A DNA stretch of 64,000 nt from assembly GCA_964533505.1 (NCBI GenBank), contig CAZHKA010000035.1, forward strand, positions 1,288 to 65,287, read 5' to 3'. This document shows, piece after piece, positions 3-6,613 of the stretch. The DNA comes from an uncultured Candidatus Bathyarchaeia archaeon (GTDB lineage: Archaea; Thermoproteota; Bathyarchaeia; 40CM-2-53-6). A model generated the notes under the pieces. It did not search any database, had not been told where the DNA came from, and worked only from the letters and a program-made list of their open reading frames with translations. The translations under genes and the position numbers were made by a program. Each line of letters starts with the position of its first letter. Position 1 is the stretch's first letter.

Positions 3-482
3 ATCCAGTTCAAGATGACGACTAGAAAAGTGATGGAACAGATGGCGAGTTTTCTTAGACAGAAACTCTGTCTCGAAGTACCCCTCAGATTCAATACCGA
101 AACTATAGCATCACCCTACGTACGCCCGTGCCATACATTGCAGATCAATAGGTCAGAGGATATTGAAACCTGGAGAAGGGCGATCGGCTTTTCGAATCCA
201 TCTCACATCACCCGAATGATGATGTTCGAACAGTTAGGAGAATGCCCACCGAGAACATGTATAGTTGACCGTTTGGCGTTTCTCTCCGGATGTTCTAACA
301 CGCTGAAGGCTGCGGGACCGATTCCCGAGTCCGCCTTTAAGTCTGTGGTATCAGCAATGAATCGGGAGGATGGATCACCTATCTCGGAAGTTCATCAAAT
401 GATGAAACGAATCAAGGCTGTGAATGAGCGATTGCGTCACTTAAATAGAGAACTCCCTCGAATCTTTCAATTAACAAGTTAG
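3..482 (+). CDS. LAGLIDADG-family endonuclease-like protein, C-terminal part (5'-truncated by the window edge)
   Basis: The frame is open from the window start (IQFKMTT...). LQINRSEDIETWRRAIGFSNPSH resembles the W..IGFSNP.H end of free-standing archaeal LAGLIDADG domains. The LAGLIDADG helix itself is not in the window. Confidence 0.55.
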   Translation: MQFKMTTRKVMEQMASFLRQKLCLEVPLRFNTETIASPYVRPCHTLQINRSEDIETWRRAIGFSNPSHITRMMMFEQLGECPPRTCIVDRLAFLSGCSNTLKAAGPIPESAFKSVVSAMNREDGSPISEVHQMMKRIKAVNERLRHLNRELPRIFQLTS

Positions 483-495
483 AAAGGAATGTGAG

Positions 496-652
496 GGCCG
501 CCGCCGGGATTTTCACGTTGTTTTCAACGCTTTGAACCCGGCCTTTCCCCGGCCACTCGGCCTCTAGGGTCCACAGCCTTGTATCCTCCTTTGGAGGTCT
601 ATACGCTACCAAGTTGCGTGGAGTTTGTGGGCTCCTCTACGCTACGGCGGCC
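496..652 (-). tRNA. tRNA-His(GUG) with encoded G-1 and four BHB-type introns (614-636, 579-598, 545-563, 510-530)
   Basis: Removing the four introns gives GGCCGCCGTAGCGTAGCTTGGTAGCGTATAGGGCTGTGGACCCTAGAGGCCGGGTTCAAATCCCGGCGGCGGCC (74 nt). Acceptor stem GCCGCCG/CGGCGGC, anticodon stem TAGGG/CCCTA around CT-GTG-GA, T arm CCGGG-TTCAAAT-CCCGG, discriminator C73. Confidence 0.93.
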
Positions 653-757
653 ATCGTTCGTTAGTGGACCGTAGTTGTTCATATCAACCTTTGCCAAAGG
701 TCCGAATCGAACACCTTTTCTTTTCATCCGAGTCAACCGCCTGCTAGGCGATTTCAG

Positions 758-1600
758 ATGGTTAAGGTCGGCGTTCATGTCTCGATTTCTGGGACGATTG
801 ATCAGGCGATTGATAGGGCTCGTGAGCTGGGTTGCGATACATTTCAGATATTCACAAGGAACCCGAGGGGATGGAAATACAAGAAGCTGAAAGAAGAGGA
901 GGTGGATGAGTTTAGACGCAAGCTAGCATCGGACTCGTTGACTCCTGTAACGGCCCACATGCCTTACCTGCCCAATCTCTCTTCTCCAAAGAAGGCGGTC
1001 TACAATAGATCCGTAAGGTCGCTCTCAGTAGAACTCCAGCGCTGTGACGCCCTAGGGATTCAGTACCTTGTTACCCATCTGGGCAGCCACTTGGGAAAGG
1101 GACAGGAGTTAGGGCTTGAGAGGATAACAGGGGCCATCAACACCGCCAGCGTCGAGAACCCGAGTAACGTCATGGTGCTCCTGGAGAATACCGCTGGCAC
1201 GAAGAACAGCATGGGCTCCTCCTTCGAGGACCTCAAGAAAATCCTTGCCCGCATCGATGATAAGAGAAGGGTTGCGATCTGCTTCGATACGGCCCACGCA
1301 TACGCCGCAGGTTACGACCTGCACAGCCCTCGCGGAGTCGAGGAGACACTGGCACGGTTCAACTCAGTCTTAGGATTCAACATCCTGAAAGTAGTTCACC
1401 TTAACGATTCTAAGGTCGGCCTAGGGTCCGGCCGAGACAGGCATGAACATATCGGGATGGGGTACATTGGCGAAAAAGGCTTCAGGGCGTTTCTAAAGCA
1501 TGAAGCCATACAGAGCCTGCCATTTATACTGGAGACGCCGATTGATGAGCGCAGGGATGAGTTGGGGGACTTGAAGAAAGTAAGAGAACTCTCAGCTTGA
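758..1600 (+). CDS. nfo: Endonuclease IV (AP endonuclease)
   Basis: Zn-ligand motifs GVHVS, HMPYLPNL, HLGSH, LLENTAG, CFDTAH, HLNDSK, DRHEHIG and ILETP. Confidence 0.95.
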   Translation: MVKVGVHVSISGTIDQAIDRARELGCDTFQIFTRNPRGWKYKKLKEEEVDEFRRKLASDSLTPVTAHMPYLPNLSSPKKAVYNRSVRSLSVELQRCDALGIQYLVTHLGSHLGKGQELGLERITGAINTASVENPSNVMVLLENTAGTKNSMGSSFEDLKKILARIDDKRRVAICFDTAHAYAAGYDLHSPRGVEETLARFNSVLGFNILKVVHLNDSKVGLGSGRDRHEHIGMGYIGEKGFRAFLKHEAIQSLPFILETPIDERRDELGDLKKVRELSA

Positions 1601-6345: not shown

Positions 6346-6444
6346 AGTCTACACCTCCGTCCAATCGAGACGTTCAGAAGCTGCGAATGCAGAGCCGCAA
6401 AAGTCGACTATAGACCTGCAAGGTCCACTGAGACTGATTCCCAT

Positions 6445-6542
6445 CTTCCTTTTCCTACGCCGGCATTACCCGGATCAGGTTCACGGGGTCAACGACCATT
6501 GTCGTCCTCTCAGCCGGGACACACCCCAGCTCCCCCCGGTAC
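6445..6542 (-). promoter_or_regulatory. TPP (THI-box) riboswitch
   Basis: Minus strand reads GGGG-AGCTGGGG..TCCCGG-CTGAGAG-GACGAC/GTCGTT-GACCCC-GTGAACCTGATCCGGGTAATGCCGGCGTAGGAA. This carries the GCTGAGA, GAACCTGA and GTAAT..CGTAGG consensus elements. P1 looks weak. Confidence 0.92.
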
Positions 6543-6613
6543 CTTCTGCGAAGTGGAGGCGTAAGGGTCGGATTTAGCCTTCTCGTTTAGCGGTCATGAA
6601 CGAGATTTACTGA

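Follow-up and report, generated by a model that had tools for sequence, protein, structure and literature searches.

A tRNA-His gene divided into five exons

The question raised by this locus is whether a tRNA-His gene interrupted by four introns, none of them at the canonical position 37/38, can serve its host as a working gene and, if so, how the interruptions arrived and how they would be removed. The locus lies in a window of 64,000 nt, by which is meant the whole stretch of DNA analysed, corresponding to positions 1,288-65,287 of the forward strand of contig CAZHKA010000035.1 in GenBank assembly GCA_964533505.1. The source is a peat MAG of an uncultured Candidatus Bathyarchaeia archaeon (GTDB Thermoproteota; Bathyarchaeia; 40CM-2-53-6) that comprises 2.49 Mb in 70 contigs, with 51% G+C, 92% completeness and 6.5% contamination, and most of the DNA runs in which the locus occurs are peat metagenomes. 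The reading favoured here, to which a probability of roughly 85% is given, is that the locus is the working, and probably the only, tRNA-His(GUG) gene of this archaeon, and that its transcript would be spliced by the route set out below.

The gene occupies positions 652-496 of the window on the minus strand and consists of five exons of 16, 15, 15, 14 and 14 nt and four introns of 23, 20, 19 and 21 nt, inserted at tRNA positions 15/16, 29/30, 44/45 and 59/60, respectively, with the introns making up 83 of its 157 nt. Read from position 652, the gene begins GG-CCGCCG-TA-GCGT-AG. Exon 1 (637-652, minus strand, as are all features of the gene) carries G-1, the 5' strand of the acceptor stem, U8 and A9, the 5' strand of the D-stem, and A14 and G15, and is followed by intron 1 (614-636), which lies in the D-loop. 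Exon 2 (599-613) supplies the remainder of the D-loop with G18 and G19, the 3' strand of the D-stem, A26 and U27-G29, and is separated by intron 2 (579-598), in the anticodon stem, from exon 3 (564-578), which holds G30 and G31, the anticodon loop with GUG, the 3' strand of the anticodon stem and G44. Intron 3 (545-563) lies in the variable loop. Exon 4 (531-544) then provides A45, G46 and G48, the 5' strand of the T-stem and the T-loop as far as A59, where intron 4 (510-530) interrupts the T-loop, and exon 5 (496-509) completes the gene with U60, the 3' strand of the T-stem, the 3' strand of the acceptor stem and C73; CCA is not encoded. Directly 3' of C73 is a CTCA trailer (492-495, minus strand), which is conserved in 25 of the 27 aligned loci from this family that are described below, the exceptions being L056 (CTCC) and L059 (CCTC).

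When the five exons were joined in silico, a 74-nt sequence was obtained that ARAGORN folds as tRNA-His(gtg), with a 7-bp acceptor stem and the additional G-1:C73 pair, a 4-bp D-stem, a 5-bp anticodon stem and a 5-bp T-stem closed by a TTCAAAT loop. The cloverleaf restored by removal of the four introns has no mismatches to the descriptor used. Its variable loop is of 4 nt, with G48 the last of them, and the position numbering includes an extra D-loop base, 17a, and lacks position 47. The identity features of tRNA-His are present, namely GTG at positions 34-36, G-1 encoded at window position 652 and C73 at position 496. Across the 27 aligned loci, the first 10 nt and the last 8 nt of the tRNA, G-1 and C73 included, are invariant, as are the G46 and G48 columns. 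The preliminary description of this DNA had proposed four non-canonical introns of the bulge-helix-bulge (BHB) type, none of them at 37/38, and a clean 74-nt cloverleaf with G-1, C73 and G48; its coordinates, lengths, helices and tRNA positions were all found to be correct, and the product that it proposed is the one accepted by ARAGORN.

Four bulge-helix-bulge motifs in one precursor

According to the rule given in a 2026 preprint on Asgard archaea (bioRxiv 10.64898/2026.10.13.758758), the four exon bases 5' of one 3-nt bulge of a BHB motif pair with the four intron bases 5' of the other 3-nt bulge. All four introns of the tRNA-His gene show this geometry, each having a central helix, two opposite 3-nt bulges and at least one flanking helix of at least two pairs. 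The central helix is complete (4/4) in every case, being GCGT/ACGC in intron 1, GTAT/ATAC in intron 2, CCCT/GGGG, with one G-U pair, in intron 3 and TTCA/TGAA in intron 4, and the bulges read AG|A and AA|C in intron 1, AG|A and AA|G in intron 2, AG|A and AA|A in intron 3, and AA|G and AA|T in intron 4. Introns 2 and 4 have the full hBHBh' motif, with an inner helix of 5 bp in both and an outer helix of 5 bp and 6 bp, respectively, the latter being the T-stem. Introns 1 and 3 have the relaxed HBh' form, in which an inner helix of 4 bp (GGAG/CTCC and GGCC/GGCC, respectively) is combined with an outer side that is open (1 bp and 0 bp). Since each intron brings with it both a 4-nt complement to the exon bases just 5' of its own 5' splice site and a hairpin of its own, each would build a self-contained bulge-helix-bulge module.

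The predicted fold of the precursor has an energy of -70.3 kcal/mol, compared with -51.2 +/- 4.0 kcal/mol in 200 shuffles (z = -4.81), and this minimum-energy structure contains all four intron hairpins together with the central helices of introns 1 and 3. All four BHB modules and the acceptor stem can be properly nested in a single structure of -59.1 kcal/mol. Five strict BHB candidates were observed in the real precursor, and at least four were reached in 3 of 300 mononucleotide shuffles.

The order in which the introns might leave was examined in the same way. The four modules occupy separate exon segments (10-13; 19-27 with 31-35; 39-42; and 49-57 with 61-65), and therefore no order of removal is forced. 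Ordered splicing, which had been put forward as a possible consequence of so many introns, is thus not required, the motifs being able to nest in one fold. The folding calculations suggest a mild preference only. With intron 2 retained, the predicted pairing probabilities of the central helices of introns 1 and 3 are 0.98 and 0.88, respectively, and in later intermediates they are 0.22-0.24 and 0.34-0.52, which suggests that introns 1 and 3 would be best presented to the enzyme before intron 2 leaves. In introns 2 and 4 the central helices are A/U-rich, and their pairing without protein is predicted to be weak (probabilities of 0.18 and 0.03, respectively).

Related loci form a series of one to four introns

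The locus was compared by BLAST with 59 genomes of the family, of which 33 gave matches, the window's own genome counted, and 30 loci were returned. Motif-free alignment to the spliced sequence was used to parse 27 of these, and the intron boundaries were then refined with the BHB rule, a step that favours the motif. Two further loci, L062 and L063, were parsed with the splice-graph scanner and one, L061, was left out as it is cut by a contig end, giving 29 parsed loci; the matches in genomes G018, G019 and G023 lie outside this set. A 74-nt tRNA-His of one kind is obtained from every one of the 29. Four introns are present in one locus (that of the window), three in 16 loci, two in 11 loci and one in a single locus, counts that are not independent of one another because the relatives are kin.

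Five sites are used in these loci. An intron is present at 15/16 in 27 of the 29, and the two loci without it, L062 and L063, are joined exactly at the predicted junction. At 59/60 an intron was found in 25, and the remaining four loci read TTCAAA|TC. At 29/30 the intron is present in 18 of the 29, and the loci without it read ...GTATAG|GGCTG..., as predicted. The intron at 44/45 was found in the window alone (1/29), and loci L053 and L060 read the exact spliced junction. For every one of the four introns in the window, at least one relative lacks it and has its exons joined at precisely the predicted junction. The fifth site, 34/35, is empty in the window and occupied in four of the 29 loci (L056, L059, L062 and L063, from two other genera), in which the tRNA-His intron lies inside the anticodon, in place of the one at 29/30. 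In L062 and L063, a further tRNA gene begins approximately 50 nt downstream of tRNA-His.

The helices themselves are maintained in the relatives. In the 27-row alignment, 96.0% of the 902 cells in the stated helices are paired, compared with 37-45% when the 3' partners are slid by one to three columns. Two-sided changes were seen in 12 of 38 pairs, and the covariation score was reached by none of 500 shuffles. Inner-helix pairs changed on both sides number 2 in intron 1, 2 in intron 2 and 3/4 in intron 4. Note, however, that one observation stands against the motif: in 17 of the 26 distinct rows of relatives, intron 1 has no pairing at the outermost position of its central helix.

At the level of the class, the one-intron gene of locus L054 was matched in 67 of 301 sampled genomes, and in three of these matches the 94 nt of L054 are covered by 74 nt, a length that would fit genes without introns in other families. 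Judged from this distribution, the introns were gained at different times: those at 15/16 and 59/60 are old, and the intron at 29/30 is, among the parsed loci, confined to those of the window's genus and one other locus. The graded series of one to four introns in close relatives, in which one intron is unique to this species, is unusually clean and provides material for the study of how, and how fast, tRNA introns are gained.

The intron at 44/45, a probable recent gain

Intron 3 is confined to this genome and is absent from the 28 other parsed loci. Its first six bases (AGGCCG) are identical to the first six bases of exon 4, and because of this 6-nt repeat seven registers of the intron lead to the same spliced product; only one of the seven, which is the register chosen in the preliminary description, forms a BHB motif. 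Bases 10-16 of the intron repeat seven further bases of exon 4. DNA contigs from two other studies carry intron 3 unchanged, and the loose ends at 565-567 in the runs of those two studies are contigs of relatives without it. On this distribution, the intron at 44/45 is a very recent gain, seen in this species alone.

An origin by copying from elsewhere was considered and found no match: a BLAST search of the genome with the intron and its flanks returned the intron itself alone and no second copy, the other hits being weak (next best E = 0.68). As the newest intron has no copy elsewhere in the genome, there is no sign here of the transposition that has been proposed for Thermoproteales. The repeats shared with exon 4 suggest instead, as a hypothesis from a single case, that the intron arose locally, by duplication or insertion, and did not transpose from another tRNA.

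The recent arrival of this insert is also where the favoured reading meets its most serious alternative, in which only three introns are spliced and the 19-nt insert at 44/45 is kept, so that the mature tRNA-His would be class-II-like, with a long variable arm bearing a hairpin. The insert does form a GGCC/GGCC hairpin in the variable region, it lacks an outer helix, one pair of its central helix is G-U, and, being unique to this genome, it has no comparative support for its removal or from covariation. Against this, the geometry fits the BHB rule exactly in one of the seven registers and follows the ...NNNN-AG|A...AA| pattern of introns 1 and 2 in the same gene, and the central helix has a predicted probability of 0.88 in the unspliced precursor. 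A long variable arm was found in none of the 28 other parsed loci, and an EndA of broad specificity, as expected here by homology, would be expected to cut the 44/45 motif. Retention of the insert is accordingly regarded as unlikely, and removal of all four introns remains the preferred reading.

Copy number, promoter and strain variation

The preliminary description had allowed for another, intact tRNA-His elsewhere in the genome. None was detected when the 92%-complete genome was searched by BLAST with the spliced sequence, which matched, apart from the exons of the gene itself, T-arms belonging to other tRNAs and a single 3' fragment, and one GTG anticodon was returned by the splice-graph scan of the 22% of the genome outside long ORFs. 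Since the genome is 92% complete and 6.5% contaminated, there is room for a second His gene in the missing part. A 'tRNA-His' with a long variable arm called by ARAGORN at C62:6811-6923 (minus strand) was identified by inspection as a two-intron tRNA-Ile(GAU). The D-loop intron of this tRNA-Ile and intron 1 of tRNA-His both end in GCAA, followed by CTGG in the former and by CTTGG in the latter.

Upstream of the gene, a BRE/TATA-like box made up of CAAAGG and TTGATATGA is located at 679-693 (minus strand), approximately 27-41 nt 5' of G-1. Within the window's genus, most loci keep this box nearly unchanged and equally far from the gene although their flanks differ, and a different A/T-rich box occupies the same upstream place in other genera. 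We infer from this position and conservation that the box is the promoter.

DNA contigs from two other studies cover window positions 300-622 and contain introns 2-4, with five differences in all, of which only one falls inside the gene (position 590, in the loop of intron 2). Because flanking positions differ, these contigs represent distinct strains that keep the architecture of introns 2-4. The sole metatranscriptome run listed (X15, with a word share of 0.04) gave a single contig covering window positions 833-885 only; this RNA contig falls in the gene for a neighbouring 280-aa protein at 90-95% likeness, and therefore probably derives from a relative. An exon-exon junction across any of the introns was seen in none of the runs, although contigs of this kind could scarcely have shown one.

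These data bear on a second alternative, according to which the locus is a decaying pseudogene, disabled by its newest insertion, and histidine codons are decoded through another gene that the assembly does not contain. The completeness of 92% leaves space for such a gene, and a degenerate tRNA-His 3' fragment approximately 1.1 kb away (C35:667-711) indicates that the neighbourhood has seen rearrangement. However, the exon bases all fit a perfect cloverleaf with no descriptor mismatches, the promoter box is intact, and the same allele is present in the DNA contigs of three runs from three studies, those of the two other studies covering introns 2-4. In addition, a single His locus was found in each of the near-complete relatives listed as matching, and the parsed rows with two matches proved to be split alignments of one locus. 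Decay of the gene is therefore considered very improbable, and the tRNA-His gene is, from its sequence and conservation, very probably functional. Finally, a chance arrangement or an assembly artefact is scarcely credible: short helices are common, as the 3 of 300 shuffles with four strict BHB candidates illustrate, and 17 of the 30 clusters in the genome scan were unvalidated, but the flawless spliced tRNA-His, the orthologues in 29 loci, the covariation and the independent contigs all speak against it.

Standard annotation and the other tRNA genes of the genome

The unspliced tRNA-His locus was missed by ARAGORN, both with and without the intron option, and by the Rfam model RF00005, whether at the gathering score, at E <= 10 genome-wide or, with lax filters, at E <= 10 on a stretch of 361 nt. 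The expectation that standard scanners would miss the gene was thus borne out for these two. A splice-graph scan of 20 kb of the contig strand returned the tRNA-His gene alone, with no mismatches to the cloverleaf descriptor. On the whole genome, ARAGORN called 27 tRNAs, several of them wrong and 25 of the 27 with an 'intron', and 18 Rfam tRNA matches above the cut-off span the whole model, 15 of which are 89-189 nt long. The scanner misses imply that tRNA counts, and completeness estimates, are biased for MAGs of such organisms.

A splice-graph census was carried out on the 22% of the genome outside ORFs of at least 130 aa, minus 13 stretches of up to 100 nt. It gave 30 clusters, of which 13 were ARAGORN-valid after splicing and 17 failed and were dropped. 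As the census recovered 8 of the 19 Rfam tRNA matches above the cut-off, and many introns lie outside the strict motif, its counts are to be read as minima rather than as a distribution; when 26 anchors were revisited with relaxed settings, 13 of them yielded nothing. Within the 13 valid genes, four introns are predicted in tRNA-His, tRNA-Leu(CAG) and tRNA-Leu(GAG), three in tRNA-Phe and tRNA-Lys, two in tRNA-Val, one in six genes (that of tRNA-Asp being doubtful) and none in one gene. The genes for tRNA-Leu(CAG) (G000:C21:1349-1534, minus strand) and tRNA-Leu(GAG) (G000:C41:13220-13438, plus strand) each have one of their four predicted BHB introns at 8/9 and are ARAGORN-valid once spliced, and tRNA-Phe(GAA), with three predicted introns, is located at C17:135409-135558. 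The tRNA-Asp 'intron' is probably spurious, as ARAGORN reads the gene uninterrupted, and the parse of tRNA-Lys(UUU) is doubtful, having a variable region of 12 nt.

Splicing enzymes and a proposed route to the mature tRNA

The genome encodes two EndA paralogues of 185 aa and 193 aa, each with PF01974 and PF02778. The 185-aa protein aligns with the catalytic subunit of the Aeropyrum pernix enzyme (3p1z_B; E = 1e-41) with the Y, H and K residues in register, and the alignment runs through the crenarchaea-specific loop with no gap, a one-residue insertion aside. Its K39 and K41 align with A. pernix K44 and R46, and K44 is reported to be needed for the cleavage of D-loop and BHL introns by the A. 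pernix enzyme (PMC3241643). The 193-aa paralogue is divergent and, on a reading of its sequence, is without His at the catalytic position, as expected if it serves as a structural beta subunit.

A relaxed-specificity endonuclease had been postulated from the introns alone, with the subunit type named as a point to be checked. The presence of a catalytic paralogue with the loop lysine, together with a paralogue without the catalytic His, makes a broad-specificity, crenarchaeal-type (alpha-beta)2 EndA plausible, with both its range and its assembly judged by homology. RtcB is also encoded in the genome (582 bits).

One route that accommodates these data begins with transcription from the BRE/TATA-like box, which would yield a precursor of approximately 157 nt plus leader and trailer. 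In this precursor the intron-borne complements and hairpins would present four BHB modules, and a heterotetrameric (alpha-beta)2 endonuclease of the crenarchaeal type would cut each of them after the second base of each 3-nt bulge. The five exons would then be joined by RtcB, and the D-arm, the anticodon arm and the T-arm would be able to form only once splicing is complete.

Comparison with other heavily interrupted tRNA genes

The tRNAscan-SE 2.0 paper (PMC8450103) gives up to three introns for archaeal tRNA genes. In Asgard archaea, 92-95% of the tRNA genes are interrupted in three genomes, as reported by Valentin-Alvarado et al. 2024 (PMC11291895), and the 2026 preprint, in which 18 reference archaea were used, describes up to five intervening sequences per gene (bioRxiv 10.64898/2026.10.13.758758). 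The preliminary description had placed the four introns of tRNA-His at or beyond the known extreme. This holds to the extent that they exceed the three of the tRNAscan-SE 2.0 paper, but not when set against the five of the Asgard preprint or the four that are also predicted in the genome's own tRNA-Leu(CAG) and tRNA-Leu(GAG). The four-intron tRNA-His is therefore rare but neither a record nor unique in its own genome, and the mechanism is the known BHB/EndA/RtcB pathway.

A close parallel in gene anatomy is offered by Thermoproteales (Pyrobaculum, Caldivirga and Thermofilum), in which short BHB or BHL introns are described at non-canonical sites in the D-, anticodon- and T-arms (PMC4090602, PMC3241643, PMC8450103). 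An alpha2beta2 EndA with the crenarchaea-specific loop is likewise described for that group (PMC3241643) and is predicted here by homology. In contrast to the maximum of three introns per gene given for Thermoproteales (PMC8450103), the present gene has four and comes from a mesophilic peat Bathyarchaeia. The Asgard genes resemble those of this genome in that over half of them are described as multi-intron, many introns lie in the D-arm, and a standard annotator misses them (PMC11291895, bioRxiv 10.64898/2026.10.13.758758); the same sources report two EndA paralogues consistent with an (alpha-beta)2 enzyme, and repeated intron gain. However, the Asgard archaea are a different phylum-level lineage, and in the present case a single gene family gives stepwise numbers of one to four introns in close relatives. 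Outside the archaea, nuclear tRNA genes of Cyanidioschyzon merolae are reported to contain up to three ectopic BHB introns per gene (D-stem, 37/38 and T-loop), and an order of removal of tRNA introns has been seen experimentally in that organism (PMC3728597). C. merolae differs in being a eukaryote with another endonuclease and in having some permuted genes (PMC3728597), whereas no permutation is seen in the Bathyarchaeia tRNA-His.

In a literature search, the supplements of the Asgard papers aside, no report of multi-intron tRNAs came up for Bathyarchaeia or Bathyarchaeota. Going by the Asgard reports (bioRxiv 10.64898/2026.10.13.758758, PMC11291895), four introns per gene have so far been described only for a few Asgard families, and the Bathyarchaeia case would add at least one lineage to those in which tRNA genes became heavily interrupted. 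It is tempting to go further and to see the intron at 44/45 as newborn at the level of the species, the product of a local duplication or insertion from which a BHB motif arose by chance, and this Bathyarchaeia family, with its five sites and one to four introns, as an independent third lineage of runaway tRNA intron gain; this broader proposal is tentative and, taken as a whole, rather doubtful at present. If it is true, how tRNA introns arrive would become testable by population genomics.

Surroundings of the locus

The gene adjoining the tRNA promoter (window 758-1600, plus strand) is divergently oriented and encodes a 280-aa xylose isomerase-like TIM barrel protein, with a match to PF01261 (AP_endonuc_2) at E = 2e-51. 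On the other side of the tRNA-His gene, at a distance of approximately 1.1 kb from it and approximately 620 nt before the first base of the window, is the 45-nt tRNA-His 3' fragment (L034:401-445, equal to G000:C35:667-711, minus strand). It consists of the 5' strand of the T-arm, a 22-nt insert at 59/60 and the 3' strand of the acceptor stem, after which comes the CTCA trailer; the T-stem has degenerated, and there are no 5' exons upstream. By eye, the insert is closer to intron 4 of the relatives than to that of its own genome. The fragment may be a relic of rearrangement, or of integration at a tRNA gene. Between it and the tRNA-His gene lies an ORF of up to 210 aa (window 3-482, plus strand, open from G000:C35:1137), for which no Pfam match was obtained even at E <= 1. 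Further into the window, at 6434-6546 (minus strand), is a TPP riboswitch (RF00059), which scored 66.1 bits against a gathering threshold of 54.3 and is the sole above-threshold Rfam match in the window.
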